64,000 nt of DNA from an uncultured Candidatus Poseidoniales archaeon (lineage in GTDB: Archaea; Thermoplasmatota; Poseidoniia; Poseidoniales; Thalassarchaeaceae), in the NCBI GenBank assembly GCA_902573015.1, contig CACGIE010000003.1, positions 10,589 to 74,588 on the forward strand, in the 5' to 3' direction. The translations under genes were made by a program, and so were the position numbers. Every line of letters starts with the position of its first letter. Positions within the stretch are counted from its first letter, which is position 1. Below the pieces are notes generated by a model that saw nothing but the letters and a program-made list of their open reading frames with translations, was not told where the DNA came from and searched no databases. Positions 2,651-61,663 of the stretch are shown piece after piece.

Positions 2651-2651
2651 A

Positions 2652-3314: not shown

Positions 3315-3320
3315 ATTGAA

Positions 3321-4767: not shown

Positions 4768-4803
4768 TAGATTTGTGATAAATGTAGTAATTTTGGAGTG
4801 AAT

Positions 4804-6759: not shown

Positions 6760-6769
6760 GGTCTAAGTA

Positions 6770-9641: not shown

Positions 9642-10337
9642 CTTTGGCTACATCCTTCCCCAATTTAAAGATGGATCAAGAAGTTCGATATCGTTTGAAT
9701 CTACCCAGAACCTACAAGCTCCGGGTACTTCTCCTGCTAGATAAAAATCCGAATATAAGTCAGCTGGAAGGCCCGCACGAGTAAAGTCATCAGAGTCAAG
9801 ATCGGCTGTCTCTAGAACTGCTGAGAAGTATGTTCCTGAACCAGGAAATTGCTCCAAGAAAAATACTTGAGGTATAGCAATTTCATCGCCCAGCCTCTCA
9901 AAGTATTGGAAATTCTCATTGTCGGACATAGGAAGCATGGAATGTGAGAATAAAACGATATTTGTCTCTCGAGAATGCTCGTACATGAGGCCTACAATTC
10001 CAGCCTCTTCAGTCATCTCCCAGCATTTGTGAGTTTCACTTGGGAGAATCAGAGTTCGGGATGAGTAGTTCACATGAGCAAAGGAGGAAAGAGATCCTGA
10101 AATTATCGATAGGACTGCAAAGAATGTAACGGCCTTCTTCTTATCCCAAAATTCCACGTCAATCTTCTTATTGAGAAGTGATAGCCCAGCCATGAACCAT
10201 ATACAGAACGGAACAATGCTGTATGCCAGAAGTCTAGGAACTAATCTCGCTGCTCCCATTCTCGAGTCAATGAAAAACATCAGAGGTAACATCAGGATAC
10301 ATCCAATTACAATACTCAAATTGGTCGTTCCACTTTT

Positions 10338-10346
10338 CCCCCCCCC
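10338..10346 (-). repeat. G9 homopolymer on the coding strand at ...DIWGG, coinciding with an ORF break
   Basis: Read directly: ttttCCCCCCCCCaaat on the + strand. Confidence 0.9.
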
Positions 10347-10790
10347 AAATATCTCCATCTCTAATTCCAAATTTCCTCTCAACTATTTTGGAAACGAGTA
10401 TGGCAAAAACCAGAGGAGTTAGCAAATGCCAGAACTCAACAATTTCTCCCAATTCTCCTGGAAACTGTCTGATGAAGCTGAACTTTGCCACGGTAAAATT
10501 CCAGTAGATAAAAGAGGAACCTAGAACAAACGCCTGCTTCCTAGCGAGACTTGATCTCTCGACCCTCATAAATGACTCAGTAATTAGAATTGAGCCTAGA
10601 ATCAGAGAGGTCTGAAGATGGCAAGTGGGGATCAGAGCCAGAATTGCATAGCTTCCTAACTTTCCAATATCACTTCTTGGGGACCAGTGAATTACTGTCG
10701 CCGCCATCAAAAGGCTCAGCATTTGAGCAGTGTATTGTAGGGGACTCCACCATGATACCATAAGGAAACAAACAAATGTAAAAGTCGGCA

Positions 10791-10797
10791 CCCCCCC
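10791..10797 (-). repeat. G7 homopolymer on the coding strand at ...NTWGG, coinciding with an ORF break
   Basis: Read directly: ggcaCCCCCCCaag on the + strand. Confidence 0.9.
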
Positions 10798-11347
10798 AAG
10801 TATTCACAAATTCTGAGTCCTTTACAGAATTGGCAACCAGAGAAATCCACAAGCAACTGACGGCAATTCCACAGACGGCTGCAACAAGGGGCGGGGAGCC
10901 AGGAAATATTCTAGAGAATGTATCCAAGATAATCAATGAAAGCATACGAGACAGATAACCCTCTGTGTGGTCATTTCCATACTCTCCGTATCGATCTGCA
11001 ATTTGAACGAACCACCATCCATCTTCGGCAATAGGAGATGGTTCTGCGAATTGTGGACTTAGTATTATTAGAAGAAAAACAAGATTTATCGAAGTCAACC
11101 TTGTAATGGGAGTCAACTTATTCTGAAATCCTGCCATGGTAAGTGTGGCAATTGACGCCCCAATCATAATTGGAATCATGGGCGTCCACATGAATCTAGA
11201 AGCGTAAGGCGACGGAATCGACTCTTTTGGATCATCTGGGGATAGGAAATACAGAATAAAAACAAGGATCGCAAAAATATGTCCCAAAATTACGATTGGA
11301 TCGGTATTACGAATTTTCATTATCGCATCATTAACGCTGAATTTCAA

Positions 11348-14300
11348 CTATTCACCCCTTGTACTAATCCAAACTACCAATACAAAGTTGGCAAATAGGC
11401 CGTAAAGGATAAGCATTATCGGTAACTTATCACCTTTGATGTGAACTAAACTATCTTCTCGGTCTAATATCCCATCTCCGTCCTGATCGAATATGCAATC
11501 CGTCGATGAGGTTGAGGAGTTTTGCAGAGTATAACCTCCTGAGGTACACGGCCTAAATTCGGCAGAGCCGGATGTTGAAACAAATGTGTTTATCGGGGCA
11601 ACTAAGCATGAAGTGGCTCTGTTTTCGGGTTGGTATGTCCCTGGTGCGCACAGTGTTGGAGATGTTGATCCCTCCATTTCCGCAAATGTTCCCGGAATTG
11701 TCCCCCTGCAGTCCGAAGATGATTTTGCCCGGGGTTCGGGAGAAAATGTGCCAACAGGGCATAGACTAGGGGCTGAAGATCCAGCAAACGAGAATTTTCC
11801 TGCTGGAGTTTCGAGACATTCGTCCCCCCTTAGCCATTCTTCCGAGTTCCTATACGTCCCAGCAGGGCACATCTTTTGCTCAGAATTTGCTTCAGACTTG
11901 GCAAAATATCCATTTGAAACAGAAATACAGGATATCGATCCAAAATCGGGTTGATATGTTCCAGGCGGACAAGGTAGGGCGAGGTTTCTAGAATTAGTGG
12001 GAACATAATAACCCGGGTCAGAAGTCAAACATTCGTAAGATCCAGAGTGTGGTTGATAGGTCCCATTGGGGCAAGTTTTTTGTTCTGTGGAACCCATTGA
12101 ATCGACGAAACTTCCAGGATCAGAGAGTATACAAAATGAGGAGGAGTGCGATGGTTGGAAAGTTCCTAAGTCGCATGGCAACTGAGAAATTGTTCCGTTG
12201 TAGGGAGAAAAATATCCCGGATCTGTTTGAATGCAATTAGACATGCCCTGAACTGGCTGATATGACCCTGGTGGGCAAGGAATTTCGGAATTATTGTCCA
12301 TAGATAGATAGTATCCCTGTCTGACAATACGGCACTCATCTATTGAAATTGAAGACCAAATTTCATTGAAAGAACCATTTGGACATGGGGATTGAGATGT
12401 CGAACCCGTGGAATCGACGTAATTTCCGGGAGAGGATGCTAGACATTCTTGTTGTCCCAACAACGGTTGAAAGGTCCCTAAGGGGCAAATCTCCACATTA
12501 TTGTTGGGATTGATGAAAAATCCAGGCATTGATAAGCAATCTGATATGGATTTTGACGCTAAATTGACTGTAGTCGAGTTTCCAGGACACTGTATTTGAA
12601 AACTTGACATCGCAGAATCGACATAATATCCCAACTGAGACTTGATACAGCTTGAGGTCGATGTGTTTGGCTGAAAGAAACCAGGAACGCAAGGTAACTG
12701 CCTTGTTTCTCCAATTCCATTAGTGTAATTTCCAGGCGATGATTCTATGCATAGCGATTGTCCAGATATTGGTTGGAATGAACCTGGTTGACATGATATG
12801 GGAGAAGGGCTGCCAATCGGAGAATAGGTTCCAATCGGAGATTGCTGACAAGTGGCAATAGAAGTTGCGCCGATTACTGGTGAAAATGTGCCCGGAGGAC
12901 ATGGACTCGGTGAGGAAGAGCCCTCATAGTCGATGTAGTGACCGGGGGGAGAAGGTATTTGATTCGGTACACCACCAAGGGAGAAGTACCCAATTGATGT
13001 GTTTTGACAGGATTCTAGGGATGTTGCTGATTCTTGATTCGAATATGTTCCTGGTGGGCAGGGAATCTGCGATGATGCCCCTATTGAATCAACATAAAAT
13101 CCAGGAGTGGCTAATTGGCAACTAAACTGTCCAGGATATGGTTGGAATTCCCCTAGTGGGCAGGGAGAAAATGCAGATCCGCTATTTTCATCGATAAAGT
13201 TCCCCGGGAGTGGGCTCAGGCAGTCACTAATTGAAGTAGAATTAATTGATATTGTAGATGAGTTTTCTGGGCATTCATTCTGAGTGGAAGAGCCATTAGA
13301 ATCTACATAAAATCCTACATCAGAAGACAAGCAAGTAGACTGGCCCCCAAGAGGTTGAAATGTGCCCAATGAGCAATTATGGAAGGAGTCGCTGCCCGAT
13401 AATGAGTAGTTTCCGGGAGGCGTAATTTGGCATTGCAATATTGAAACGGAAGAGGAGTTGTAATTGTAGGTCCCCACTGGACAAGGTTTCTGTGATGATG
13501 CAGCGAAATCATCAACAAAATAACCCGGAGATGAAGGATGGCAATTAGACTGCCCTTCTAATGGCTGGAAAAATCCTCTAGGGCAAGGGAATGTCTGATT
13601 TGAGCCAATGATGTCAACATAATGTCCAGATGGGGAAATTAGGCATATTGATTGAGAAATATTGGGCTGAAAGTATCCAGCCCCACAGGCTATCTGGAAG
13701 GTAGAGTTCTCAGATTCAACGAAAAATCCTGGAGATGAGTCGATGCAATCGGAGCTCGACCAATCTGGTTGAAATTTCCCCGAGGGGCATGGTATCGGTT
13801 CGGAAAAACCCTGAAGAGAGAAGGTCCCTGGTGGACTTTTCTGACAACTATTTATCGAAGAAGAGCCAAAATCTGGGTTATAGGTCCCTGATGGACAAGG
13901 AGTCTCGAAAGAAGATCCATGTCCTGGGACATAATAACCTGGATTGGCCAGAATACAGTTATTTTTTCCGACGAGATTCTGAAATTCCCCAGGAGGGCAT
14001 TCTTTTCCAGAAGTTGCCGAGGCGACGTCGGAATAGTTTCCCTTGCCTGCATTAATGCAACTTCCTTGTCCCGAGGATGGTTGGAAGGTCCCTGGTTGAC
14101 AACTAAACTGGATTGGAGAACCTTCCGGAGTCCAATAGCCCGGGTCGGTAATTTGGCAGTTATCAGCTATCGAGCCACTTTCATTGGAAAATGTTCCAGG
14201 GGGGCATGGTATCGGAGATTCGGCTCCCATGAAATCAACATATGTGCCTGGAGGAGAAACTGTGCATGAAGTCTGTCCGAAGTTCGATTGGAACGTGCCC

Positions 14301-14680
14301 ATCGGGCAATTCTGGAATGAAATTGATTTAAACTCCGGAATGAAGGTTCCAGGAGGAGAGTCTTCGCAATAATGGTAGCCAAATGACCCGGGGGGACATA
14401 TTATCGATCGTTCGTAGTCTCTTGGGAAGTCATCTGCATGATTCAATACCCCATCTTTATCATAATCGAATGATTCCAGCTTAATTCCCCCCATGATAGC
14501 TGATTCAGTTTGCTGAACCCCAATTCTAGAGCAAGATAGTTCGGATGCGTTAACTTCTACGTAGCAATAATCATCCAATCCAATTGCCAAAGTAGGGTAT
14601 ATTGCCGGAATTAATGACGATTTCATCCCCCCCCCAGCAGTCAGATAGTCCGTCCAATTCAAGAATGCAAATTGAACCAA
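11348..14680 (-). CDS. Giant Cys-repeat cell-surface protein. It has GCC2_GCC3/ephrin-receptor-like CPxGT(F/Y)QP modules, Asp-rich Ca-binding-like motifs and a C-terminal TM anchor. It is probably the C-terminal part of a fusion with the upstream RCC1 ORF.
   Basis: By hand count there are ~28 C-x(9-16)-C modules, for example CPPGTYQPDFGSISC, CPLGTFQPLLGQQEC and CQPGSFQPISGQSLC. Each is followed by (S/D)PG(Y/F)(Y/F)V. DYDKDGVLNHADD lies near the N-terminus and DQDGDGILDRED near the C-terminus. The last ~25 aa are hydrophobic (LPIMLILYGLFANFVLVVWI). There is no convincing signal peptide of its own. Confidence 0.75.
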   Translation of the reverse strand: MVQFAFLNWTDYLTAGGGMKSSLIPAIYPTLAIGLDDYCYVEVNASELSCSRIGVQQTESAIMGGIKLESFDYDKDGVLNHADDFPRDYERSIICPPGSFGYHYCEDSPPGTFIPEFKSISFQNCPMGTFQSNFGQTSCTVSPPGTYVDFMGAESPIPCPPGTFSNESGSIADNCQITDPGYWTPEGSPIQFSCQPGTFQPSSGQGSCINAGKGNYSDVASATSGKECPPGEFQNLVGKNNCILANPGYYVPGHGSSFETPCPSGTYNPDFGSSSINSCQKSPPGTFSLQGFSEPIPCPSGKFQPDWSSSDCIDSSPGFFVESENSTFQIACGAGYFQPNISQSICLISPSGHYVDIIGSNQTFPCPRGFFQPLEGQSNCHPSSPGYFVDDFAASSQKPCPVGTYNYNSSSVSILQCQITPPGNYSLSGSDSFHNCSLGTFQPLGGQSTCLSSDVGFYVDSNGSSTQNECPENSSTISINSTSISDCLSPLPGNFIDENSGSAFSPCPLGEFQPYPGQFSCQLATPGFYVDSIGASSQIPCPPGTYSNQESATSLESCQNTSIGYFSLGGVPNQIPSPPGHYIDYEGSSSPSPCPPGTFSPVIGATSIATCQQSPIGTYSPIGSPSPISCQPGSFQPISGQSLCIESSPGNYTNGIGETRQLPCVPGFFQPNTSTSSCIKSQLGYYVDSAMSSFQIQCPGNSTTVNLASKSISDCLSMPGFFINPNNNVEICPLGTFQPLLGQQECLASSPGNYVDSTGSTSQSPCPNGSFNEIWSSISIDECRIVRQGYYLSMDNNSEIPCPPGSYQPVQGMSNCIQTDPGYFSPYNGTISQLPCDLGTFQPSHSSSFCILSDPGSFVDSMGSTEQKTCPNGTYQPHSGSYECLTSDPGYYVPTNSRNLALPCPPGTYQPDFGSISCISVSNGYFAKSEANSEQKMCPAGTYRNSEEWLRGDECLETPAGKFSFAGSSAPSLCPVGTFSPEPRAKSSSDCRGTIPGTFAEMEGSTSPTLCAPGTYQPENRATSCLVAPINTFVSTSGSAEFRPCTSGGYTLQNSSTSSTDCIFDQDGDGILDREDSLVHIKGDKLPIMLILYGLFANFVLVVWISTRGE
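11500..14401 (-). repeat. Degenerate in-frame tandem array of ~30-35 codons per unit that encodes the Cys-pair modules
   Basis: The periodicity is seen at protein level. The DNA copies are diverged, so this is not a CRISPR array or a satellite. Confidence 0.7.
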
Positions 14681-15647
14681 AACCAGAAGAAATTATCCTG
14701 GGATTTGTCAAATTGTGATCTATCTTTACAGGGGATTCCGTTGCTTCGAACCCAAGAGATTCGAGATTGCCCCAGCATTCAAAGTCGCCTGAAAAGGTAA
14801 GAGCGCATGTGTAATATTCTCCAAGTGAAATTGCTAAAATCCTACCGAAAACATGGGTTTCATTCCGCAAGGGTGGGCTATAGTCAATATTCTCCTCAGA
14901 AACTTGGTTATGCGAGTTATCGCCCCAGCATCTAACTGTTCTATCGGATAAAATAGAGCAAGCATGATGTTTCCCGCTCGAAATAGAGATTGCCTTCTCC
15001 GAACGTCCATCAATTATCTTAGTGGGAGGAAGGGGTGGGTTCTGTTGTGAATTGAGCGGATTATCTCCGAAATTCCCCCAGCACCAAACACTCCCTGCTA
15101 GCGTTAAAGCGCATGAGTGAAATTTCCCTGAAGAAGAAGAAATTGCCGCTTCTCCGCCAATACCGATAACAGAAGGAGGGGAGAAAAATTCATTCTCAAT
15201 CTTCCCGGAGCTTTGTCCGAACGAATCCTGACCCCAACAAATCACCAAAGATCTTTCAGAAATCGAGCATGTATGTCGATATCCAGAGCTAAGACTTGCA
15301 AAATTTCCGAATTCCCCTGTTTCGATAGAGAAAAAAGAAATTCCACTACCTTTAGAACCTAGTTGACCATAGAAATTTCCTCCCTTACAGTTAACTGATT
15401 CTTCTTGCGCTATCCAGCAAACGTGATCCTTTCCGACGGAGATTTTTGATCCCTCAAACCCTTCTTGGAAACCTATTGCCTCACTAATGCTCGAGCCTGA
15501 AGCGTCAGAATAGTTTTCGGAATCATCTACAACGAATGAGTTTTTCATTGACGGACTGACTAGATAAGACGACAATATGATCATTACCAGCACCAAGCGC
15601 CGAGAGTGAGAAGACACCTTTGGGCTCATGGTGATTCTTGGGGGCAA
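14571..15647 (-). CDS. Secreted RCC1-repeat (beta-propeller) protein, probably the N-terminal part of the giant surface protein
   Basis: The N-terminal hydrophobic signal is LVLVMIILSSYLV. At least 6 RCC1-like blades are present: CKGGNFYGQLG, CWGQDSFGQSSG, CWGNFGDN, CWGDNSHNQV, CWGNLES and CWGG. Confidence 0.75.
   Translation of the reverse strand: MPPRITMSPKVSSHSRRLVLVMIILSSYLVSPSMKNSFVVDDSENYSDASGSSISEAIGFQEGFEGSKISVGKDHVCWIAQEESVNCKGGNFYGQLGSKGSGISFFSIETGEFGNFASLSSGYRHTCSISERSLVICWGQDSFGQSSGKIENEFFSPPSVIGIGGEAAISSSSGKFHSCALTLAGSVWCWGNFGDNPLNSQQNPPLPPTKIIDGRSEKAISISSGKHHACSILSDRTVRCWGDNSHNQVSEENIDYSPPLRNETHVFGRILAISLGEYYTCALTFSGDFECWGNLESLGFEATESPVKIDHNLTNPRIISSGFGSICILELDGLSDCWGGDEIVINSGNIPYFGNWIG
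14627..14635 (-). repeat. G9 homopolymer on the coding strand at ...DCWGG, lying between the RCC1 ORF and the Cys-repeat ORF
   Basis: Read directly: catCCCCCCCCCagcag on the + strand. Removing one G reads ...LSDCWGGMKSSLIPAIYPTLAIGLDDYCYVEV... continuously. Confidence 0.9.
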
Positions 15648-15738
15648 CGTGTATTAAAAAATCCATTCTCGCACATCCTCGTAGAGTAGTTTACAAAGTA
15701 CTGAAATTTGGATTTGATACAAGGGAAATCGTGATAGC

Positions 15739-17448
15739 ATGAAGAAGACATGGGTTGCAATCATATTTTGCTCACTTGTCCTCTCTGTATTGATTGGAAA
15801 GTATTTCGAAGGAACGGATCCGTTGCCATCGGATTTTAATGATGACAGAAACAAGGAAGTTGTAATATTCTCATCATTCCAAGAGTTCTCTATTGACTCC
15901 GGGGTTGATTTCATGGAGAACGAAATGGATGTCATTCCACCTCTACCTGCAGGTACTAGAATCTTTCAAAGACAAATTGACATCATTGGGGATCCGATAG
16001 ATTCGATGGGAGATAGTGTTTGCATAATTACCGGAGACTTAGGGAGTCTTTGCTGGCAGGGAGACGAAGGAGAATATCAAGTTGAAAGAAGAAGTTCAAA
16101 GCATGTAGAAGGATTGCCAGAGGGAGGTTTCGTTTCCATTGCAACTGGACAGAACCATACATGTGCAATGCATGATTCACTCATTGGTATAAGTTTGGTT
16201 TGCTGGGGCTCAAACTGGTACGGGCAGACTGGCGGGAGTTCGCAAACTAGTACAAACTGGAATGTTCTGCAGGCCGAAAATGGAAATTGGACTTCACTGG
16301 ATGCAGGAAGAATTCACACTTGTGGAGTAAGCGGGGGCGATGTATTTTGTTGGGGGGATGGTTCAAGGGGGCAGATCGGAGATGGGTTTAGTTCGCAATC
16401 CAGTACCCCAATTGAAATCGAAATTGGCGCTGAAGAAATTGTGAAAGTTATCTCAGGCAGTTTTCATAATTGTGCCCTCACAGGGCTAGGAGACGTTTTC
16501 TGTTGGGGATGGAACGGATTTGGGCAGATTGGGGATGGTAGTTTTGATGATGCATTTGTTCCAAGAGAGGTGATCTTTCCTAACGGGGAAATCATTGAAG
16601 ACATAGAGGTAGGGGAATCCCACAATTGTGCAAAAGCAAGGAGTGGCTCGATATTCTGTTGGGGAAACAATCTAGAAAACCAGATCTCGCCAAACAGAAA
16701 TTATTCCTCCTCGATTCCAGTAAAAACATTTCAAAATGTTGCTAGAGATGAGGTTATTTCCTTGGGGGCTAGTAGTTCGTGTGTGATTTTCAGTCATGAT
16801 TACGAATGTCTGGGAGAATTTAGAGATCATCAAATTCCTGATTTGAGTAGAATTACGAGTTTTTCTTCTGGGAGTGGTTTTTTCTGCTACATTCTACATG
16901 GAGAAAATGTAAATTGTAGAGGTACGAATGTTGACTTTGTACCTAGGGAAGCTCTAACTATTTCTCCGCCGACTTCAGTATGGCCCGGGTTAATTTCAGG
17001 AGTTGTGCTCACCGAAGAAAGTTCAAATCATCGAATCATGAGAGTTAACGAAAGTGTTCCACTGGCAAACATTTCATTTGTAGTTCAATTGGGAAGCGAT
17101 ACGGATTTCGATGGATGGTCTGATCTAGAAGAGGAGGAGTGCGACTCAAATAGTGCAGAAAGACTGTCAAAGCCAATTGATACGGATAAGGATGGTGTCT
17201 GCAACCATATCGACAATGATGACGATAATGATGGTTTTTCAGATGATGATGATTCCTTCCCATTGGACGTAAATGAGTGGAAAGACAATGATAAAGACGG
17301 CATAGGGAGTAATAGTGATAGTTTCGAAGTTACTACCCCTGTGGTTGGCGCAATAATTACCGGTTCGATACTCTTGATTATTTTTCTCTTGGAGGCACGA
17401 GAGATTTTTCAACTCTCCAGAACTTTTAATCACGAGGAAGAGGAGTGA
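15739..17448 (+). CDS. RCC1-repeat surface protein with Asp-rich (thrombospondin type-3-like) Ca-binding motifs and a C-terminal TM anchor
   Basis: The signal anchor is WVAIIFCSLVLSVLI. About 7 blades are present, including CWGSNWYGQTGG, CWGDGSRGQIGDG, CWGWNGFGQIGDG and CWGNNLENQ. Asp-rich motifs are DTDFDGWSD, DTDKDGVCNHIDNDDDNDGFSDDDD and DNDKDGIGSNSD. The C-terminal TM segment is VVGAIITGSILLIIFLL. Confidence 0.8.
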   Translation: MKKTWVAIIFCSLVLSVLIGKYFEGTDPLPSDFNDDRNKEVVIFSSFQEFSIDSGVDFMENEMDVIPPLPAGTRIFQRQIDIIGDPIDSMGDSVCIITGDLGSLCWQGDEGEYQVERRSSKHVEGLPEGGFVSIATGQNHTCAMHDSLIGISLVCWGSNWYGQTGGSSQTSTNWNVLQAENGNWTSLDAGRIHTCGVSGGDVFCWGDGSRGQIGDGFSSQSSTPIEIEIGAEEIVKVISGSFHNCALTGLGDVFCWGWNGFGQIGDGSFDDAFVPREVIFPNGEIIEDIEVGESHNCAKARSGSIFCWGNNLENQISPNRNYSSSIPVKTFQNVARDEVISLGASSSCVIFSHDYECLGEFRDHQIPDLSRITSFSSGSGFFCYILHGENVNCRGTNVDFVPREALTISPPTSVWPGLISGVVLTEESSNHRIMRVNESVPLANISFVVQLGSDTDFDGWSDLEEEECDSNSAERLSKPIDTDKDGVCNHIDNDDDNDGFSDDDDSFPLDVNEWKDNDKDGIGSNSDSFEVTTPVVGAIITGSILLIIFLLEAREIFQLSRTFNHEEEE

Positions 17449-18848
17449 AAATAGTGATTTCTTTCGGCCTTGGAATAAAGATTTATGATTCTCTGCCTCA
17501 AACTATCCAAGGAATAATTGGGAAAATATTAGCTCCAATTCCACTGAGTTGGAGAGGTCACAGAGGAGTATTCAATTTGGCAGAAAGAATCTCCGAACCA
17601 ATTACAATCGATGAGTTAAATGAAAAAGAGAGTGAGGCCTTGTCGGAACTGGTAAGACATGCTTACGAAAATGTTCCGTACTACAAGGACTTGTTCTCAG
17701 AGAAGAAAATTGACCCTAGAGACGTAAGGTGCATCACAGACCTGCAAAGTTTACCAATACTAACAAAGAGCGATGTGAGAAAAAATGGAAGCGATCTTAT
17801 TGCCAGTGATGCAAAGAAATATTCTCCTGGAAAGGTTAGAACATCGGGCTCTACCGGGGAACCTCTAGAGTTCCTAATCGATCAAAGAACAAGACTCTCA
17901 GAATATGCAGCGGAATGGAGGTGCATCCTAGAAAATGATGGGGAACTAGGTGGTAAGACGGCAACATTTCGAGGAAATTACTACAGAAACCATCGAAAGG
18001 TCGGAGCAAGCTGGTTCAGACACGCATTGTCGGGGGATTTGATTTTCAATACGTTCTCGATGGACGAGGAAACCTGCAGGAAATATATTACAAAGTTAAG
18101 GAGTTTCAGTCCTGAAATCTTCAGAGCTTTCCCTTCAAGCCTATCCCATCTTGCTAGATTTGTTGAAAGAGGTAAAATCAACGAACATGCTATCGCCTTT
18201 TGCTCTTCTGAAATGATGAGCGAAGAAATGGAGGATTTGATTCAAACTAGAATTTGTAACACTGTAATAAACTGGTACAGCCAATCGGAGTATGTACTAT
18301 CTGCCGGAACGTGTAGAGAAGGAAACATGCACATCAACTCGGAGTTTGGAATAATCGAGGTTCTCGATGAAGAGGGAAAACCGGTTCCAGACGGTACAGT
18401 TGGAAGATTAGTAGGAACTAGTCTTACGAACTTCTCTCAGCCGTTTATAAGATATGATTTGGATGACTTGGGTGCAATATCGGAAACTCGCTGTAAATGT
18501 GGTAGGCCCCATAGGATCCTACAGAGAATATCGGGCAGGCATTCCGATCTGATAGTCACTCCCGATGATAGGACCCTGAGTACTGTACAAATGCAACATT
18601 GGTGGAAGCACCAAGCAGTCAAAGAATGGGATTTAGATCACTTTGATTGGATCCAGTTGATTCAAACCGATATTTGCTCTTTCAGAATTCTTGTAGTTTC
18701 AAAATCCGGAGTTGAGATTCAGAATTATCATGAAAATATGGAAATGGCATTATCGGATCTCTGGGGCACAGAAGTTTCAGTTTCTATTCAAGATTTAGAC
18801 ACGATGCCCCATGGGGAGAAGTGGAGATTCTCGAAATCAGAGATTTGA
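17445..18848 (+). CDS. Adenylate-forming enzyme of the phenylacetate-CoA ligase / coenzyme F390 synthetase (CapK-like) family
   Basis: RTSGSTGEPL AMP-binding motif, ~460 aa, layout typical of the PaaK/CapK family. Its GTG start overlaps the upstream stop as GTGA. Confidence 0.7.
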   Translation: MKIVISFGLGIKIYDSLPQTIQGIIGKILAPIPLSWRGHRGVFNLAERISEPITIDELNEKESEALSELVRHAYENVPYYKDLFSEKKIDPRDVRCITDLQSLPILTKSDVRKNGSDLIASDAKKYSPGKVRTSGSTGEPLEFLIDQRTRLSEYAAEWRCILENDGELGGKTATFRGNYYRNHRKVGASWFRHALSGDLIFNTFSMDEETCRKYITKLRSFSPEIFRAFPSSLSHLARFVERGKINEHAIAFCSSEMMSEEMEDLIQTRICNTVINWYSQSEYVLSAGTCREGNMHINSEFGIIEVLDEEGKPVPDGTVGRLVGTSLTNFSQPFIRYDLDDLGAISETRCKCGRPHRILQRISGRHSDLIVTPDDRTLSTVQMQHWWKHQAVKEWDLDHFDWIQLIQTDICSFRILVVSKSGVEIQNYHENMEMALSDLWGTEVSVSIQDLDTMPHGEKWRFSKSEI

Positions 18849-18925
18849 TGGTGGACGCTGGGGGATTTGAACCCCCGGCCTTCTGGTTGCAAACCAGACG
18901 ATCTTCCAGGCTGATCTAAGCGCCC
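18849..18925 (-). tRNA. tRNA-Ala (anticodon UGC) with genomically encoded 3' CCA
   Basis: Folded by hand: GGGCGCT/AGCGTCC acceptor stem with the G3:U70 Ala identity pair, anticodon loop TTTGCAA, T-loop GGGGG-TTCAAAT-CCCCC, then A-CCA. 77 nt. Confidence 0.9.
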
Positions 18926-18976: not shown

Positions 18977-19615
18977 CTAATCACGAGTAATCAGGCTAGG
19001 AGAGATTGCCATGATTCCCATTAGAGAAGTGAATAGGATAACCACAAGAAGGTCCCTGCTGGCGTCCTCTGATCTTTCTTGAGATATTTGGGGCGGACCT
19101 ACTTCTGGTTCAGGCTGATTGTGCACGTCTTCCATGAAAGTTACAGACAAGTGCTCCTCTAACAGAAGGGAGTCATTCATTATTTGATGCCGTAGTTGGA
19201 TAGTTCCTGGCAGGAGACCGCTCTCCGGTCCCAGCAATATTGTCTCTGTTACCATACATGACTTGTCCGCCTTGCTGCCATTTTCGTCCAGATCACAAGA
19301 TCCGCTGAGCCAGTTAGTAGAGAAGTCATCTGAACCATTGAACAGACCGTCATCATCAGCATCGAACTGGATTCTGTGACTAACCCCCTCCCTATCGTCC
19401 ACGTTCATGAAGAACAGAAAGTCAGTCTGTACAAGGACATCGTCCGGAATGGTCTGAGGGGTCGTGCCCTCATGAGTCAGTAGAATCGTGTACTCCTTAG
19501 GCTCGTGAGCTGAAACTACCGACGAGAGAAATGAGGCTAGTAAGATGGAAGTGAATGCAAGTGCAGCTATTCTCACATGTCCCGGATAGTATGCGATGGC
19601 TTGAACATGACTCAC
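18977..19615 (-). CDS. Exported, C-terminally anchored small protein, possibly with a cupredoxin-like beta-sandwich; function unknown
   Basis: Signal peptide AALAFTSILLASFLSSVVSA, the segment FLFFMNVDDREGVSHRIQFDADDDGLFNGSDD, two Cys, an acidic linker and a terminal TM segment (LLVVILFTSLMGIMAI). The architecture matches ORF 23373-23906. Confidence 0.4.
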   Translation of the reverse strand: MSHVQAIAYYPGHVRIAALAFTSILLASFLSSVVSAHEPKEYTILLTHEGTTPQTIPDDVLVQTDFLFFMNVDDREGVSHRIQFDADDDGLFNGSDDFSTNWLSGSCDLDENGSKADKSCMVTETILLGPESGLLPGTIQLRHQIMNDSLLLEEHLSVTFMEDVHNQPEPEVGPPQISQERSEDASRDLLVVILFTSLMGIMAISPSLITRD

Positions 19616-19629
19616 CTTATGGGAGGGGC

Positions 19630-21378
19630 ATGGACAGGCAGAGGGCAGCTATGGCTTTGGCATTGACTGCTTGCGTAGTGGTAGCAGGAGCATCGACATT
19701 ACTGTTGTTGCAAGATAGCGAAGTCAGAATTTCGAATGATTCTGAATCAATGGTGGACCCATTACTGCAAGACGAGGGTCATGATCATAGGAATGCCAGC
19801 CAACACATCCTCTACACGGAAAACATCCAACCGGTTTCATTCAATGCTCTGACTGCGCCGGGCAATGCTGAGGTCCAGGTTTCAGACTCCCCGGATGGTA
19901 GGAGATACGCGTACATTGCAGGATGGAGCGAGATGCACATCGTCGATGTTACTGACCCAACTAATACTATTGTAACCGGGGTCTACGTGGACCCAAATAC
20001 CCAGGTTCTCGATGTCAAGTACCTAGTCTACAACAACAGGGAGTATGTGATTGTCCAAAACCAACTGGTTGACCCGGGGGCTGCAGATCCCAATGTCGGA
20101 GAGTGGGGCGATCCTGCTCAGGTTACGGTAACTCTCGTTGACGTGACTGACAAATATGAGCCTACATTCGTCGATGCCTGGTACGATGCAGATCACCCAA
20201 GCGGCCCCCACAACCTGTATACTCACATGATCGATAACGAGTGGTACATCTTCGTGGCCAACCCCGACTACGAGTCATGTGACATAGGGCAGGGAGATGC
20301 TTGTGGGGGGATCACGGTTGCGCATCTGAACTTCGCAGGATATGGGGATTTACCCCGGATCGTGAAAGTGGGAGAGGCAGAGGTGAGTTGGGAAACCACG
20401 AGAGGAGGATGGATCTACATACACGACATGACGGTCCAGACATGGCCTGGAGAGGACTCCAGTGATCCGCGATTTGGCAGGACATACGTCTATGGGGCAT
20501 ACTGGGAAGCCGGACTGAGGATTTTCGATGTATCCGATGTCCCGCATCCGGGCAAGGACATGGTTGAGTACCTAGCCATAGCAGCTGCCTGTCGTGGATC
20601 ATTCGGGACGCAATTGGGTTGCAACTGGAGAGCTCCGGAGGTAGGGCTATGGATGGACTTCGAGGACTTCGATGGCGACGGGCAACCAGACAGTGGGACA
20701 ACTGGGAATGAGAATGGGGGGAGGGCCTCATACATCCACTATGCCGAGCCAATAGACGAAATGGTAGATGCCACCCATCTTGGATACCCTTCTGGCAAGA
20801 TTCACATGACGATCATAGCTACTGAAGTCCTAGAGACCACAGTAGGCACAGGGATGGCATACCTGCTGGACACTACTCCCTATGAGGTCGTGAATGGGAA
20901 TGTAAGATTCCTGCCCCAGCTCATCCACGGTTGGGAGACCCCGTTCGCAGATCATCACTTCATCCCAGGGGGGGAAGAGTGGCTGCTATTCAGTCCGCAT
21001 AATGCCGATCATGAGATTTTCCAGACGGGTCTGCCAGGGTTTCCGGACAATAGCCATGGTGGTGCTTGGGACGGTAGGATATACATGGGCAACTACCACT
21101 CCGGACTGTGGGTTATCGACATCGAGTCCCTAATGGTGGCAGGACTTGAGAACGGTAACAAGACTGAGGCTCACATGGAGTCGACAGTTGGTTACCACCT
21201 CCCTCATGGAGCCGATGGGGCCCCGCTTGACAGTTCGTACTACGACTTCGGATGGACGCCATTCATCTGGGCGGCTGAGCACTACAAGGGCTATACGTAC
21301 TTGTCATGTATCACCACCGGATTGTACATTGTCCAACTCGATATAGACGAGCCCTATGGAAACTCTATCTCGTTATGA
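19630..21378 (+). CDS. LVIVD-repeat beta-propeller protein, exported via an N-terminal signal anchor
   Basis: LVIVD-type strands are EMHIVDVTDPTN, VTLVDVTDKYEP, GLRIFDVSDVPHP, GLWVIDIESL and GLYIVQLD. I chose the ATG at 19630 because it removes the overlap with the divergent gene and precedes the TM segment AAMALALTACVVVAGASTLLLL. Confidence 0.7.
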   Translation: MDRQRAAMALALTACVVVAGASTLLLLQDSEVRISNDSESMVDPLLQDEGHDHRNASQHILYTENIQPVSFNALTAPGNAEVQVSDSPDGRRYAYIAGWSEMHIVDVTDPTNTIVTGVYVDPNTQVLDVKYLVYNNREYVIVQNQLVDPGAADPNVGEWGDPAQVTVTLVDVTDKYEPTFVDAWYDADHPSGPHNLYTHMIDNEWYIFVANPDYESCDIGQGDACGGITVAHLNFAGYGDLPRIVKVGEAEVSWETTRGGWIYIHDMTVQTWPGEDSSDPRFGRTYVYGAYWEAGLRIFDVSDVPHPGKDMVEYLAIAAACRGSFGTQLGCNWRAPEVGLWMDFEDFDGDGQPDSGTTGNENGGRASYIHYAEPIDEMVDATHLGYPSGKIHMTIIATEVLETTVGTGMAYLLDTTPYEVVNGNVRFLPQLIHGWETPFADHHFIPGGEEWLLFSPHNADHEIFQTGLPGFPDNSHGGAWDGRIYMGNYHSGLWVIDIESLMVAGLENGNKTEAHMESTVGYHLPHGADGAPLDSSYYDFGWTPFIWAAEHYKGYTYLSCITTGLYIVQLDIDEPYGNSISL

Positions 21379-21406
21379 AGTGACCATACTAATTGGGTGC
21401 AGTTTC

Positions 21407-21414
21407 ATAAAATA
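21407..21414 (+). promoter_or_regulatory. Candidate archaeal TATA box (ATAAAATA) ~20-25 nt upstream of the ATG at 21434, which would imply a leaderless or near-leaderless transcript
   Basis: It is the only AT-rich block in the 55-nt intergenic spacer. The spacing fits a TATA-to-TSS distance. Confidence 0.3.
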
Positions 21415-21433
21415 GGTATCCCCGGATAGGGAC

Positions 21434-23371
21434 ATGGGCACTAGGGTTTGGCTAGCGGTTTCCATGGTGATGTTGGCTCCGGTATCTGGTTGTCTATCTT
21501 CTGAAAGCGAAGAGAGTAACGAAATCGGAGGCGAGGGTTGGTTAGATCCCGTTACCGAGATAGAGGATGCGAACCACTCTCACAGCGATCTATTGGCTCA
21601 CAGGTTGTCCACCTCAAATGCCAATCTAATCGACTACCATAACCTGAACTGCGACGGCGAGGTGTACCCCCCTCCAGAGTTAGACAACACTGCAGGAAGG
21701 CCTTGCTTCGATGAGTGGAAGAACGTTGGTCCGACCCCTGGAGACAACTCGGAAATCGCGATTGAAGGAAATTTCGACGAGGACTGCAAGATTCACGCGG
21801 ATGGCAGTGGTGGCTGCTTTGCCTACGTCTCGAGCTACAATCAGTTTGAAATTCTAGATATAAGCGAGCCGAATAACATCAGACTGCTTTCGACTTACTA
21901 TGCCGAGATTGCGAGGATGATTGACATCAAGGTGACCAAGGACAATAACTGGGTGCTAGTGAATCACGAATTGACTAACAGCGAGTTGGACCCAATACCC
22001 AATGATGATGATGCAAACAGCGGAATGAACAGATTGGACGTGATCTATGTGGGCGACAAGACAAGTCCAGTGAAGGTCGCAGAGTGGAACAATCCCCCAG
22101 CAGGATTCCACAATCAGGACCTAGCAGTATACTGCGATTGGGATGGAGCAGTAGATTTCAGGGAGGAATGTAGCCTCTTCCTATTCGGAGCCGACCCATA
22201 TCCCGAGATGGTAGAGGGCGGATCGGGGACATTCTACAAGGGGACCCAGATATTCTACGTCCCTAGAGGATTCGAGTCCTGGTTGCCGAATCAGAACGAT
22301 GAGCAGCAGAACTCTAGCAGGGAGATCATCAGGTGGGGAGGATACACGCCAGAGCCGGATACCACGTGCGGTGGTTCGATATTCAACCACGATCACGTGT
22401 ACTTCGTACACCCCATCACAGGACAGCGTCTCCTAGTAGCATCTTACTGGGGGGCTGGCCTCAGGATTGTAGATGTCAGCGAACCACCGATCCTAGCAGA
22501 CCCACTTGGAATCTCTTGGCCTCCCGAGGTAGGGAGATGGCTGGGTTGCCCCACTGCTGACGATGGTTGGTACGGTCCGGATGGAGGGGGGCACGCCAAT
22601 ATGACTCCCGAGGAATGGCTAGACGCGGAGCAGGGGAACGACAACATCCACTACGCGGTTCCCTACGACCATCTTGTTTGCAATGGGATAAGCGAGTACG
22701 TTCCTCAGTTAGAGTGGCCATCAGAGTGTGGCTCGGGCCCCAATGATGCGACTTACGGGGTAAACTGGCGCCACTACACGATCATCGCTCCGGAGTATGG
22801 CAGTAATGCTGGACACACTGGCTTCCTCTGGACTATAGACACGACAGATCCGACCAAACCGTTCCTTGTATCGAAATGGAGACTACCGGGAGAGGGGACG
22901 CTAGCAAATGGATCCAAGCACCCGCAGCACTACATCCCTGGAGGATACATCTACAGCCCCCATAATGGAGATACTGGTGTAAATGGTCATGTCTACTGGA
23001 CCCACTACCATGCGGGGAACTGGGTCACTGACCACGGAAGAATATGGGAGGAGCTGGTATGGGAGAACGGAGTGGCCGAACCAGACAGGGGTTTCCAGGC
23101 GATAGAGGAGCTAGCCCCAACTCACACTATCGGATACTACTTGCCATCTGGACCATACTGGATAGAAGACCCAACCACCACATTGGGGTATGACATGGCC
23201 GACTGCTGGGCCTCTTGCATGATTCCGTTCGATTGGGGACTGCAGTACGACCCCCGTGGATTCCTCTTCATCTCCGAGATGGTCAGTGGGATCTACGTGG
23301 TCCAGTTCGATGAGGACTTCGACCCGCGATACAACTATCCTGCGCTATGGACCATTGAAGATGATGATTGA
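21434..23371 (+). CDS. LVIVD-repeat beta-propeller protein, paralogue of the upstream gene, with a lipobox-like signal
   Basis: Strands FEILDISEPNN, GLRIVDVSEPP and GIYVVQFDED. ASYWGAGLRIVDVS parallels GAYWEAGLRIFDVS in the paralogue. The N-terminus is MGTRVWLAVSMVMLAPVSGC. Confidence 0.7.
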   Translation: MGTRVWLAVSMVMLAPVSGCLSSESEESNEIGGEGWLDPVTEIEDANHSHSDLLAHRLSTSNANLIDYHNLNCDGEVYPPPELDNTAGRPCFDEWKNVGPTPGDNSEIAIEGNFDEDCKIHADGSGGCFAYVSSYNQFEILDISEPNNIRLLSTYYAEIARMIDIKVTKDNNWVLVNHELTNSELDPIPNDDDANSGMNRLDVIYVGDKTSPVKVAEWNNPPAGFHNQDLAVYCDWDGAVDFREECSLFLFGADPYPEMVEGGSGTFYKGTQIFYVPRGFESWLPNQNDEQQNSSREIIRWGGYTPEPDTTCGGSIFNHDHVYFVHPITGQRLLVASYWGAGLRIVDVSEPPILADPLGISWPPEVGRWLGCPTADDGWYGPDGGGHANMTPEEWLDAEQGNDNIHYAVPYDHLVCNGISEYVPQLEWPSECGSGPNDATYGVNWRHYTIIAPEYGSNAGHTGFLWTIDTTDPTKPFLVSKWRLPGEGTLANGSKHPQHYIPGGYIYSPHNGDTGVNGHVYWTHYHAGNWVTDHGRIWEELVWENGVAEPDRGFQAIEELAPTHTIGYYLPSGPYWIEDPTTTLGYDMADCWASCMIPFDWGLQYDPRGFLFISEMVSGIYVVQFDEDFDPRYNYPALWTIEDDD

Positions 23372-23372
23372 A

Positions 23373-23906
23373 ATGAGCAGGGCACTCGTCATAGCACTTC
23401 TGATGTCCTCAATCGCAATGCCAATGGCATCTGGGCACGGAGCGAATGACTTCTCGATTATCATGAGGGGGTCTAGCCTTCAACCAGTAGTTGCCGAAGT
23501 GATGCAGAACGACTCCGTCACGTTCTACAACGTGGCTGACACCAACAGGACGATCAGAGTGGACCTGGATGGGGATGGCGAATACGATCAGAGGTGCGAG
23601 ACGGAGCCTAGTAACTCCTCGTCCATAAGGGATGAGTGCTCGTTCATACTGGACTGGGACAGATGGCCAGCGGGAAATTACTACCTTGAAGTATTCGAAA
23701 ATGGGACCATCTGGAACACGCTAAATCTGACTGTGATGCACGACTATCACGAGGAGGCGGGGCCCCCTACAGGATACTCATTCAACTCGGAGGACTCTGC
23801 GGATGAGGATTCGAGTGGTACAAGTGATGGCCTGCTAGCTATGTCAGTCATGCTTATTTTGGTTTTCTTAGTCGTAGTAAATAGGCTAATGGGGATGGAT
23901 GAATGA
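23373..23906 (+). CDS. Exported, C-terminally anchored small protein, paralogous in architecture to 18977-19615; cupredoxin-like?
   Basis: The ATG at 23373 gives the signal peptide MSRALVIALLMSSIAMPMASG. It also has VTFYNVADTNRTIRVDLDGDGEYDQRCE, an acidic linker and a terminal TM segment (LLAMSVMLILVFLVVV). No canonical type-1 Cu ligand set is evident. Confidence 0.4.
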   Translation: MSRALVIALLMSSIAMPMASGHGANDFSIIMRGSSLQPVVAEVMQNDSVTFYNVADTNRTIRVDLDGDGEYDQRCETEPSNSSSIRDECSFILDWDRWPAGNYYLEVFENGTIWNTLNLTVMHDYHEEAGPPTGYSFNSEDSADEDSSGTSDGLLAMSVMLILVFLVVVNRLMGMDE

Positions 23907-24631
23907 AGATGGGCAGGATGACCTCTTTTTTCCTATCTTTGTTGATAATTTCCTCTTCCGGATGCCTCTCCGGTGAGGTTGATGATTTCTACGGAGAGGA
24001 TATCTCCCCTCCCATTTCAGTGGATGATTTCGTTCTAGTTGATGAGAATGGGGATACTGTCTCTATGTCTGATTTCGAAGGGAAGGTGGTAGTGGTGGCC
24101 TTCCTATTCACAAGATGCCCGGATATCTGTCCAGTAGTCAGTGCCAATCTGGCATTCGTAGAGCAGGAACTGGGCGACCTGCATGGCTCTTCTGTTCAGA
24201 TCCTGACTGTTACAGTCGATCCGTGGACGGACAATGCAAGTGTTCTGAACAATTATGCCACTACCAGGGAACTCGGATGGCCGCATCTGACGGGTGCAGT
24301 CGAGGACTTGGAACCTGTTTGGATGAACTTCGACGTAGGCCTAACAACGTATGACACAGATGTGGACAACGACGGAGTCGCTGACGGATTCGACAGTTGC
24401 CCCGATACACCAGAGGGGGAAGAAGTCGATAACAACGGATGTGGGAAGGAGACCCAGCAGCCAGAGGGGGACGTGGTGACTAACCATCACCCACTTGACT
24501 ACTGGGTGGATCACACGACGGGCACGATCATAGTTGACAAGCAGATGAGGCAAAGGGTATGGTGGGGAGACACGGACTGGAACCCTGAGCTCGTTCTCGA
24601 AGACATACTGAGCCTAGTGGAAGAAGAGTGA
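23903..24631 (+). CDS. SCO1/SenC-family copper chaperone / thiol-disulfide protein with an inserted Asp-rich motif
   Basis: GKVVVVAFLFTRCPDICP provides the CxxxC motif, and a downstream conserved His lies in VDHTTGTIIVD. The insertion is DTDVDNDGVADGFDSCPDTPEGEEVDNNGCG. The lipobox-like N-terminus is LLIISSSGC. Confidence 0.8.
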   Translation: MKMGRMTSFFLSLLIISSSGCLSGEVDDFYGEDISPPISVDDFVLVDENGDTVSMSDFEGKVVVVAFLFTRCPDICPVVSANLAFVEQELGDLHGSSVQILTVTVDPWTDNASVLNNYATTRELGWPHLTGAVEDLEPVWMNFDVGLTTYDTDVDNDGVADGFDSCPDTPEGEEVDNNGCGKETQQPEGDVVTNHHPLDYWVDHTTGTIIVDKQMRQRVWWGDTDWNPELVLEDILSLVEEE

Positions 24632-24658
24632 AATAATCCCTAACTAGGAAGCAAGACT

Positions 24659-25768
24659 ATGTCTGTGAGAGTCAGAGCGGCGATTTTGGCCTTCTCCTTC
24701 CTACTTGTAGGATGCATTGGCCCTGAGGGGACGGAGATACTGGGGACAGAATACAGGAATCCGCCCGATGCGCCGGACTTTACTCTGGAAAACCAGTTCG
24801 GGGAGGATGTTTCTCTTTCCGATTTTGATGGGAAGGTCGTAGTTGTTGCTTTCATCTACACTGCCTGTCCGGATGTTTGTCTGATCATTTCATCCAACAT
24901 CGACTACGTGAGTCAGAATCTGGGAAGTGAATCAGAATTCGTCGAGTTCATCTCAATAACCATAGATCCTGCTAGGGATACCACTCAGAGGCTCTTGGAG
25001 TGGACCACTGCGAGAGGGTACGAATGGAACCACCTTACCCACGACAGGGGCTCTGTTATGCAAGCAGTATGGGACGAATGGAAGGTCGTGGTGGATGCCG
25101 ATCACATTGCGAACAGCCTTCCGCCGGAAGAGGCGATGCTGAGATTCGCAGTTTTGGGTCCTGACAACTCCACGGTAGTGACTGACAACCCATGTATAGA
25201 CGCATTCAACGTATCCTGCTACGATGATGGGGGAGAACTCGCTGAATACGCGCTAACAGTGAATGCCGAAATGGACTACGACATTAGGAATGGGACGATT
25301 GGGAATTGGACTGCGGATGACTCATGGGAGTGGGTTCTCCATATCTGGAATGACTCAGACGAAACATGGGATCCCACTGATGTTGGCATCTCTGAAATAG
25401 ACATTGGAATCGATACGCACTTAGCATGGATAGCGAGTAATGCAAATTTGAGCATTATGCCCCCGGGTGTTGATTGCGATGGCAGGGGATGGGTCATGGG
25501 AGCTGGAGCAAGCGCCCATTGCATGTGCGATGACGGATGGGACAGGGATTCCGATGACTGGATGTCTTGTGTTCCAGAAGGAAGCACCGAAGTGAATGAT
25601 GGAAATCTCACAGACCCTCATGAAGAGAGTCTGGGAGAATACGAGATTGGGCACTCGACAGTTACTTTCATCATTGACAAGGAGCAAAGGAAGAGGGTTG
25701 CATACTCGGGCATCCACTGGGATGTCGGAGATTTCCTACAGGATGTCAAGGCACTGGCAGAAGAGTGA
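24659..25768 (+). CDS. SCO1/SenC-family protein with a ~170-aa insertion between the CxxxC motif and the conserved His
   Basis: GKVVVVAFIYTACPDVCL places the Cys at positions 70 and 74, and GHSTVTFIIDKE places the His at 332. The insertion contains a Cys-rich EGF-like stretch, CDGRGWVMGAGASAHCMCDDGWDRDSDDWMSC. The N-terminus is lipobox-like (FLLVGC). Confidence 0.75.
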   Translation: MSVRVRAAILAFSFLLVGCIGPEGTEILGTEYRNPPDAPDFTLENQFGEDVSLSDFDGKVVVVAFIYTACPDVCLIISSNIDYVSQNLGSESEFVEFISITIDPARDTTQRLLEWTTARGYEWNHLTHDRGSVMQAVWDEWKVVVDADHIANSLPPEEAMLRFAVLGPDNSTVVTDNPCIDAFNVSCYDDGGELAEYALTVNAEMDYDIRNGTIGNWTADDSWEWVLHIWNDSDETWDPTDVGISEIDIGIDTHLAWIASNANLSIMPPGVDCDGRGWVMGAGASAHCMCDDGWDRDSDDWMSCVPEGSTEVNDGNLTDPHEESLGEYEIGHSTVTFIIDKEQRKRVAYSGIHWDVGDFLQDVKALAEE

Positions 25769-61625: not shown

Positions 61626-61663
61626 ATCGCTGGGATTTTATCATTAGTCATGAATGCTATTAG

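Follow-up and report, generated by a model that had tools for sequence, protein, structure and literature searches.

A conserved six-gene locus for exported propeller, cupredoxin-fold and SCO1 proteins in Marine Group IIb archaea, tentatively read as a surface metalloenzyme operon with a copper supply

We describe a cluster of six genes for exported proteins on a 64,000-nucleotide stretch of DNA (the window; all coordinates are positions within it) from contig CACGIE010000003.1 of an uncultured archaeon. The source lineage is Thalassarchaeaceae, that is, Marine Group IIb (MGIIb), and the close homologues all belong to Poseidoniales/Thalassarchaeaceae. The genes, labelled A to F, lie at 18977-25768, with A on the minus strand (18977-19615) and B, C, D, E and F on the plus strand. 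They encode two small membrane-anchored proteins (A and D), two LVIVD propellers (B and C) and two SCO1/SenC proteins (E and F), as follows:

18977..19615, minus strand: gene A, membrane-anchored cupredoxin-like protein; open reading frame (ORF) of 212 amino acids with a C-terminal transmembrane helix
19630..21378, plus strand: gene B, N-terminally anchored seven-bladed LVIVD propeller, 582 amino acids
19780-19806, plus strand: conserved N-terminal H51-x-H53-x5-H59 motif of B
20011-20013 (D128), 20209-20211 (H194) and 20422-20427 (H265/D266), plus strand: predicted central metal site of B, from ligand mapping
20737-20739 (H370), 20824-20826 (E399) and 20998-21000 (H457), plus strand: predicted central metal site of B, continued, from ligand mapping
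21434..23371, plus strand: gene C, lipobox-anchored paralogue of B, 645 amino acids
23373..23906, plus strand: gene D, membrane-anchored cupredoxin-fold protein, 177 amino acids; acidic linker, then a C-terminal transmembrane helix
23903..24631, plus strand: gene E, SCO1/SenC lipoprotein, 242 amino acids; predicted copper ligands C72-x3-C76 and H204
24659..25768, plus strand: gene F, SCO1/SenC lipoprotein, 369 amino acids; predicted copper ligands C70-x3-C74 and H332

An initial annotation of this DNA had placed six exported genes at these coordinates, in this order and with this spacing, and we find all of that as it was given, apart from start codons. Judging by the family consensus, A probably starts at a GTG at 19576 and not at 19615. 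The start of B is most likely 19630; the mechanical ORF begins at 19555, where it overlaps the 5' end of A. For D, an in-frame ATG at 23361 or 23364 is an alternative start, as called in D homologues. The corrected starts of A and B leave only about 53 nucleotides for two divergent promoters, and a sigma-70 promoter scan, of no relevance for an archaeal host, gave no excess. The plus-strand genes show operon-like packing in the sequence itself: C ends with the TGA at 23369-23371 and the ATG of D stands at 23373, a 1-nucleotide gap, and D and E overlap by the 4 nucleotides ATGA (23903-23906). All six proteins carry export signals, which are a signal peptide in A and D, an N-terminal transmembrane helix in B and a lipobox Cys in C, E and F. 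The paralogy proposed within each pair also holds, with E = 1e-27 for B against C (BLASTP), E = 1e-26 for E against F (37% identity, both ends aligned) and a profile match, given below, for A against D.

Judged by their sequences, E and F are genuine SCO1/SenC members with intact CxxxC…H sites, as had been claimed from the outset. The Pfam family SCO1-SenC (PF02630) scores 91.2 bits in E and 82.3 bits in F against a cut-off of 22.8, and the predicted ligands align with those of solved Sco proteins. Among solved proteins, E is nearest to Thermus thermophilus Sco1 (2K6V), whose CPDxCP and VDHT motifs line up with its own, and F to the Sco of Bacillus subtilis. The motifs read C72-PDI-C76 with H204 (in VDHT) in E and C70-PDV-C74 with H332 in F, and each of these residues is kept in at least 90% of the orthologues (61 for E, 53 for F). 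Both proteins carry inserts: residues ~150-185 of E (24350-24460) form a thrombospondin-type-3-like acidic DxDxDG loop with a weak match to Pfam TSP_3, and in F a Cys-rich insert of ~180 residues (~25090-25640) lies between the thioredoxin core and the strand of the His ligand. The insert of F is partly conserved across orthologues, for example at HCMCD and W.W.L.

The small proteins A and D are built alike: the signal peptide at the N-terminus is followed by a beta-rich domain and an acidic linker, and a hydrophobic helix forms the C-terminus. Both have the motif F-x-N-V-x-D ... D-x-D-x-D-G that the initial annotation had picked out. Compared pairwise they are weakly similar (27% over 71 residues, E = 3e-5); compared as family profiles they align with an hhalign probability of 99.2% (E = 3.4e-19). 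Signal cleavage is predicted at VSA|H37 in A and at ASG|H22 in D (codon 23436-23438), which would make a histidine (His1) the first residue of the mature protein. A His directly follows the signal peptide in 74/74 orthologues of A and 65/66 of D, and a D-x-H motif further on is kept at the same frequencies, 74/74 and 65/66. The conserved residues of A are H37, H80, C107, C120, H143 and D163-x-H165; invariant in D are C75, C89 and D124-x-H126-x-E128 (23742-23756). In the profile alignment the positions of His1, the two Cys and D-x-H coincide.

Both small proteins had been called cupredoxin-like, a description that stands for the fold and falls for the metal site. The AlphaFold2 model of D, with a core pLDDT above 90, matches cupredoxins at a Foldseek probability of 1.00; target-relative TM-scores are 0.6-0.78 against plastocyanin, amicyanin, the Nitrosopumilus purple cupredoxin, EfeO and FtrB. 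Pseudoazurin is also among the matches, and nitrous oxide reductase is matched by its cupredoxin domain. By homology, A would share the fold of D. The D family profile has no sequence relative in PDB, and neither A nor D has a Pfam match at E up to 0.1 or any NCBIfam match, on which grounds membership in CopC (PF04234), PCuAC (PF04314), YcnI or Cupredoxin_1 is ruled out for both.

The blue-copper ligand set is absent from both proteins: no Cys follows C120 in A or C89 in D, residues 109-112 of D, the loop that joins its last two strands, include no Cys, His or Met, and an invariant Arg59 occupies in D the position of the first His ligand of plastocyanin, where A has H80. Because the Cys-His-Met loop is absent, A and D are not classical electron carriers, and the blue-copper carrier is rejected as a candidate for them. 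The Cu(I) motif of PCuAC is H(M)X10MX21HXM; Met is not conserved in A or D, and neither this motif nor a match to the Pfam family is found in them. The conserved Cys pair lies mid-domain, comprises the only two conserved cysteines and would suit a disulfide.

The conserved residues that remain suggest a different kind of site. CopC binds Cu(II) by His1, Asp83 and His85 (PfCopC; PMC7529816), and the sequence pattern of A and D, a predicted His1 plus D-x-H, resembles this triad. The D-x-H of both proteins sits just past the last strand. In the cupredoxin topology, the start of the first strand and the end of the last strand lie at the same pole of the barrel, so that His1 and D-x-H could meet there; the predicted site is then at the barrel end opposite to the blue-copper site. 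Going by sequence pattern, A and D are probably CopC-like histidine-brace metal binders, most likely for copper, without being members of the CopC family, and together they would constitute a new histidine-brace family on a cupredoxin scaffold.

The propellers B and C are labelled hypothetical wherever a source names them, their sequence clusters holding up to several hundred metagenome sequences each. A single LVIVD repeat (PF08309) is detected in each, at 31.7 bits in B and 26.0 bits in C (cut-off 20.2). The AlphaFold2 model of B (pLDDT 83, pTM 0.86) shows an N-terminal transmembrane helix (residues 3-29) and, after it, a propeller of seven blades. The best Foldseek matches of this model are the EPTP domain of LGI1, the phosphotriesterase Sb-PTE (5hrm_B) and WD40 proteins; no enzyme other than Sb-PTE (E = 3.8e-10, sequence identity about 12%) ranks near the top, and none of the matches listed exceeds its query TM-score. 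Family profiles run against PDB sequences return Sb-PTE (5HRM, 5IOJ) as their sole match, at E = 5.9e-19 and 5.7e-23. The initial statement that LVIVD propellers have no established function was thus too strong, since B and C are homologous to this phosphotriesterase. Membership in choice-of-anchor B (TIGR04312) is ruled out, B scoring 24.7 bits and C giving no match at a cut-off of 100; distant relatives of B and C match this family over their full length and weakly, at 24-53 bits.

Which residues would hold a metal can be asked by alignment. Mabanglo et al. 2016 reportedly give E201, H258, H317, H389, E407 and H475 as the metal ligands of Sb-PTE; in 5IOJ, positions 201 and 407 are indeed E, and positions 258, 317, 389 and 475 are H. 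Residues 172-576 of 5IOJ were rebuilt from printed alignments and then added to a 57-sequence family alignment. Here H194, H265, H370 and E399 of B align colinearly with H258, H317, H389 and E407 of Sb-PTE, and two further pairs are matched by motif and spacing only, D128 with E201 (DVK…DG and ETMH…PG) and H457 with H475 (SPHNxD and GSHFND). Outside Marine Group II the sequences of this family are just 21-31% identical to B. Across all 57, H194, D266, H370, E399 and H457 of B are invariant; H53, H59 and H490 are found in 56, H51 and D128 in 55 (D128 being Glu in the other two), H265 in 50 and K130 in 47. The equivalents in C are H48, H50, H56, D164, K166, H226, H319/D320, H406, E454, H510 and H526. 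In the B model H194, H265, H370 and H457 each open a beta-strand in successive blades and, from these strand starts, would be expected to line the central channel; the segment H51-x-H53-x5-H59 is placed with fair confidence.

B and C are best read, on this homology, as Sb-PTE-type metalloenzymes with an enlarged, His-rich predicted site, and they extend the Sb-PTE fold to a conserved archaeal family. Their ligand set is of the hydrolase type and not an obvious copper or redox set, and homology makes hydrolysis a more likely reaction for them than a redox step.

Now we consider how far the six genes stay together. Our MGIIb survey covered 80 GTDB species representatives (the best 80 of 299 relatives, all of them MGIIb, with Poseidoniaceae not among them). 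A adjoins B on the minus strand in 76/76 loci with enough flank, and D, E and F lie downstream of C in 63/63 species with enough flank, giving the order A(-)BCDEF in all 63 informative species. Median identities to the window proteins are 80% for B, 78.5% for C, 71% for PheRS-alpha, 65.5% for E, 53% for F, 43% for A and 41% for D; that both propellers stand above PheRS-alpha suggests strong constraint on them. The borders of the cluster vary: an island found only in the window lies upstream, and downstream some loci have an inserted YHYH gene that others lack. Literature searches on LVIVD, on Marine Group II with copper and on YHYH returned no paper on the A-F cluster, and A, B, C and D are nameless in the libraries and literature searched.

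The downstream border has features of its own. The gap between F and PheRS exceeds 1 kb in 34/59 MGIIb loci, and in eight inspected loci it holds an exported gene, with a YHYH domain (PF14240) in the four that were scanned and a YHYH-type motif in four more. Examples are L003 5424-7724, where an FSH1 hydrolase domain is fused to YHYH, L015 5957-7672 and L043 17126-18199, and further ones are in L012, L018, L023 and L031; the gap of L030 has only a 226-residue ORF without the domain. The window itself lacks a YHYH gene, F ending at 25768 and the PheRS ORF running from 25782. YHYH has no known function, and its His-rich motif beside copper chaperones may be relevant.

The reading that we favour, tentatively, is that one operon couples metalloenzymes with their metal supply, and that A, D, E and F handle copper. 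The locus would be a surface metalloenzyme operon made of two modules, A-B-C and D-E-F, joined in the MGIIb lineage; one copy of the A/D paralogue is present in each. B and C would be membrane-tethered extracellular propeller enzymes with a predicted metal centre on the propeller axis, homologous to the binuclear centre of Sb-PTE; in B the site of D128, H194, H265, H370, E399 and H457 would be enlarged by H51/H53/H59 and H490. Flexible acidic tethers would keep A and D near the membrane, and both would capture Cu(II) from seawater. The SCO proteins would take over the copper, reduce it or prepare the target site, and metal would be inserted into extracytoplasmic targets, these being the CuA of a terminal oxidase and, via A, probably the propellers. 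D-E-F would in this way form a capture-and-hand-over copper relay. What the data show is the gene order and how well it is kept, the folds, the SCO1 membership of E and F, the homology of B and C to Sb-PTE and the conserved residues; that cleavage falls before His, that A, D, B and C bind metal, which metal this is, which way it is passed on and what reaction follows are inferred. Copper is the most economical guess for A and D because the two share a predicted site and D is translationally coupled to a SCO gene, and copper handling by A in turn hints that B and C receive copper or depend on it. The earlier proposal of an uncharacterised copper-delivery or redox system survives in part: the copper chaperones and the operon packing speak for it, the hydrolase-type ligands and the missing type 1 site against it. 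E and F are of known kinds, and it is the A-B-C-D content that has no name in the searched libraries.

Several points weigh against the coupled operon. At the level of residues, cleavage before His in A and D is predicted by the small-x-small rule only, and both the proximity of His1 and D-x-H in D and the clustering of the conserved B residues on the propeller axis are expected from topology and strand positions. The automatic alignment places D128 three residues off and does not pair H457 with H475; for the reported Sb-PTE ligands, what was checked in the sequence is the residue type at each position. The six Sb-PTE-type ligands (four His, two carboxylates) are moreover typical of Mn, Zn and Fe hydrolases and not of known copper centres. 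At the level of loci, AlaRS comes directly after A-B-C in the metagenome locus L097, where B is 78% and C 72% identical, and D-E-F is missing there. L090 and L091 have B-like (54-56%) and C-like (48%) genes and no SCO gene within reach, and propellers stand alone by glycine-cleavage or PheRS genes in six distant Thermoplasmatota loci, with neither SCO nor an A/D-like gene. Finally, synteny inside one family may partly reflect shared ancestry and not selection.

Because SCO is absent from L097, L090/L091 and the six distant homologues, the propellers are not generally reliant on an adjacent SCO gene. A general co-occurrence of LVIVD and SCO1 is rejected, none being found in the loci examined outside MGIIb, so the linkage that the initial annotation stressed holds for MGIIb (63/63) and not beyond. 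What reaches further is the link between A and B: since A accompanies B outside MGIIb without SCO, this association is older and tighter than that with SCO, which is an MGIIb feature. In L090/L091 the genes are C-like, FMN reductase, EamA transporter, B-like (opposite strand), A-like with VSA|H and an unknown Cys/His-rich membrane protein; the last of these, 217 amino acids long in L090 (7142-7795, plus strand, after the A-like gene), has C-x2-H, H-x-H and C…IHTHD motifs and no Pfam match, and is a possible alternative metal-handling partner.

The distant propeller homologues, ~25-35% identical, are all from non-marine Thermoplasmatota, and a scan of metagenomes brought up nothing closely related to the intermediate homologue P0213. 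One distant locus, L086, has as neighbours a TlpA-like thioredoxin protein and a 187-amino-acid anchored protein, which is ruled out as an A/D relative because it has no N-terminal His. In L084, L088, L089 and L001 the propeller homologues adjoin glycine-cleavage (GcvH/GcvP) or PheRS genes. As GcvT and PheRS flank the MGIIb cluster, and GcvH/GcvP or PheRS the distant propellers, the genomic position of the propeller gene is suggested to be very old.

The strongest competing account, which we find doubtful and still take seriously, is that unrelated modules share an operon. B and C would be Mn/Zn/Fe hydrolases of the Sb-PTE type, acting for instance on phosphoesters or other esters in dissolved organic matter, D-E-F would serve general CuA assembly for the terminal oxidase, and A would be an accessory of B with no relation to copper. 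The homology to Sb-PTE and the conservation of its ligand positions fit this account well, as do A-B-C without D-E-F in L097, the A-, B- and C-like genes without SCO in L090 and L091, and the distant propellers that stand alone by housekeeping genes. It also fits that Thermus Sco1, the nearest protein to E, acts in the assembly of cytochrome oxidase, and that no further SCO1 gene is seen in the window. No cytochrome oxidase (cox) gene is found within its 64 kb, and none is present among the called genes of those loci whose gene tables were inspected, so the SCO proteins may simply serve a distant oxidase, an alternative that the initial annotation had named. The shared predicted metal site of A and D tells against it, for copper handling by D would make the same most likely for A, and wherever A occurs (MGIIb, L090, L097) it goes with B. 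Nor would unrelated modules readily account for six genes unsplit by insertion in 63 species though both borders vary, or for four conserved His in the propeller family beyond the Sb-PTE set.

A more integrated copper or redox system appears unlikely. It would make B and C cuproenzymes with a multinuclear His copper cluster, functionally like the CuZ site of nitrous oxide reductase or thiocyanate dehydrogenase, with A and D as partners and E and F as maturation factors. Seven-bladed propellers holding copper clusters are known, and so is Sco-dependent maturation of a propeller enzyme, GlxA in Streptomyces. The eight conserved His, three carboxylates and one Lys of B and C exceed the needs of a binuclear hydrolase, and one operon joins two SCO1 with two cupredoxin-fold proteins, each type in two genes. 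Against this, a family profile (A5) run on PDB sequences at E up to 1 finds neither nitrous oxide reductase nor thiocyanate dehydrogenase, the top 50 Foldseek matches listed for the B model include neither of them, and B and C are on both counts rejected as their relatives. In the only homologue detected the binuclear centre holds manganese. A and D, lacking a type 1 site, would make poor electron carriers, and the link to SCO is lineage-specific. We would give a similarly low chance to the boldest form of the idea, in which B and C are a new class of extracellular His-ligated multinuclear copper enzymes on an Sb-PTE-like propeller, matured by histidine-brace A/D proteins and a specialised SCO1 relay.

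Very improbable, finally, is an account of B and C as non-catalytic surface proteins for binding or adhesion, of A and D as structural envelope proteins and of the SCO adjacency as meaningless: invariant His, Asp and Glu persist at the Sb-PTE ligand positions despite 21-31% identity, the conservation of B and C exceeds that of an aminoacyl-tRNA synthetase subunit, which is unlike fast-evolving surface adhesins, and the first residue of predicted mature A and D is invariant (74/74 and 65/66). Its appeal comes from the usual annotation, LVIVD repeats having reportedly been first described in archaeal cell-surface proteins (PMC2447325), from a Tenderiales study that guessed attachment or protein-protein interaction for an LVIVD protein, and from top Foldseek matches that are protein-binding, such as the LGI1 EPTP domain and WD40 proteins.

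The surroundings of the cluster differ on its two sides. G+C is ~0.41-0.46 in the first 20 kb and ~0.47-0.54 across the rest of the window, rising close to a tRNA-Ala gene (18849-18925, minus strand). The low-GC stretch (1-18925) ends near this tRNA gene and encodes glycosylation and surface proteins: a polysaccharide-synthesis protein, an asparagine synthase, a heparinase II/III-like protein, a GT1/GT4 glycosyltransferase, a 1110-amino-acid Ephrin_rec_like repeat protein, two exported RCC1-repeat proteins and a LuxE-like protein. Its last gene (17445-18848) is without a match in any of 83 related loci tested, and two related loci have glycine-cleavage T protein, TFIIB and AdoHcy hydrolase in place of the stretch, which looks like a strain-specific surface or glycosylation island. 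On the 3' side of F, PheRS-alpha, FolD and SufE/SufS lie in synteny with related genomes. Farther along, a cytochrome c assembly-like membrane protein (60912-63097, minus strand; PF01578, weak match) adjoins an ABC ATPase, and the two may be a haem-handling or CcmC-like pair; a 418-amino-acid protein (54793-56049, minus strand) joins a treble-clef zinc finger to RRM_1, a domain uncommon in archaea.

Marine Group II, of which no member is in culture, ranks with the most abundant archaea of surface seawater. The link to Sb-PTE gives B and C a testable active site. It also suggests that this fold, known solely from a bacterium that degrades flame retardants, has long had a natural role in Thermoplasmatota. 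With A and D, the growing set of histidine-brace metal-binding proteins would gain a member of cupredoxin fold. If the link to copper is true, the operon is relevant to how much copper planktonic archaea need and how they use trace metals; if B and C were multinuclear copper enzymes, they would carry out an undescribed copper-dependent surface reaction, for example the oxidation of a small sulfur or nitrogen compound.

Set beside known systems, the locus is a mixture of the familiar and the new. With SCO1/SenC proteins (Thermus Sco1, 2K6V; B. subtilis Sco, 1ON4/1XZO), E and F share the thioredoxin-like domain, CxxxC, the distal His and an extracellular membrane tether, and they differ in their large inserts before the His strand, their tandem paralogy and the lack of adjoining cox genes. 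A and D resemble CopC/PcoC in the predicted mature N-terminal His with D-x-H ~100-130 residues later, and in being small exported beta-sandwich proteins beside copper-handling genes; however, they have no sequence match to CopC at E up to 0.1, the top 50 Foldseek matches listed for the D model include no CopC entry, and a C-terminal transmembrane anchor and a conserved Cys pair set them apart. Among cupredoxins (plastocyanin, amicyanin, pseudoazurin and halocyanin, with EfeO and FtrB as non-blue members) the D model reaches its highest TM-score, 0.78, with FtrB (8VUK), and H80 of A, in its F-x-N…H-x-I-x-F-D context, resembles the first copper ligand of plastocyanin; A and D nevertheless lack the Cys-x(n)-His-x(n)-Met loop, and their candidate ligands are at the termini, at the opposite barrel end. 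A small copper-binding protein plus Sco is a copper relay of known kind, and the D-E-F relay would resemble the CopC or PCuAC plus Sco sets of bacteria. With the choice-of-anchor B family, for which we know of no function, B and C share LVIVD above threshold, and their distant relatives score far below its cut-off. The sole characterised homologue of B and C remains Sb-PTE, the haloalkylphosphorus hydrolase of Sphingobium sp. TCM1 (5HRM/5IOJ), a seven-bladed propeller with a binuclear manganese centre. The residues of B and C aligned with its six ligand positions are conserved, and to these the archaeal proteins add the N-terminal H-x-H-x5-H, H490, D266 and K130; unlike Sb-PTE, they are archaeal, membrane-tethered and part of a core gene set, not of xenobiotic degradation, and their MGIIb copies are encoded with copper chaperones.

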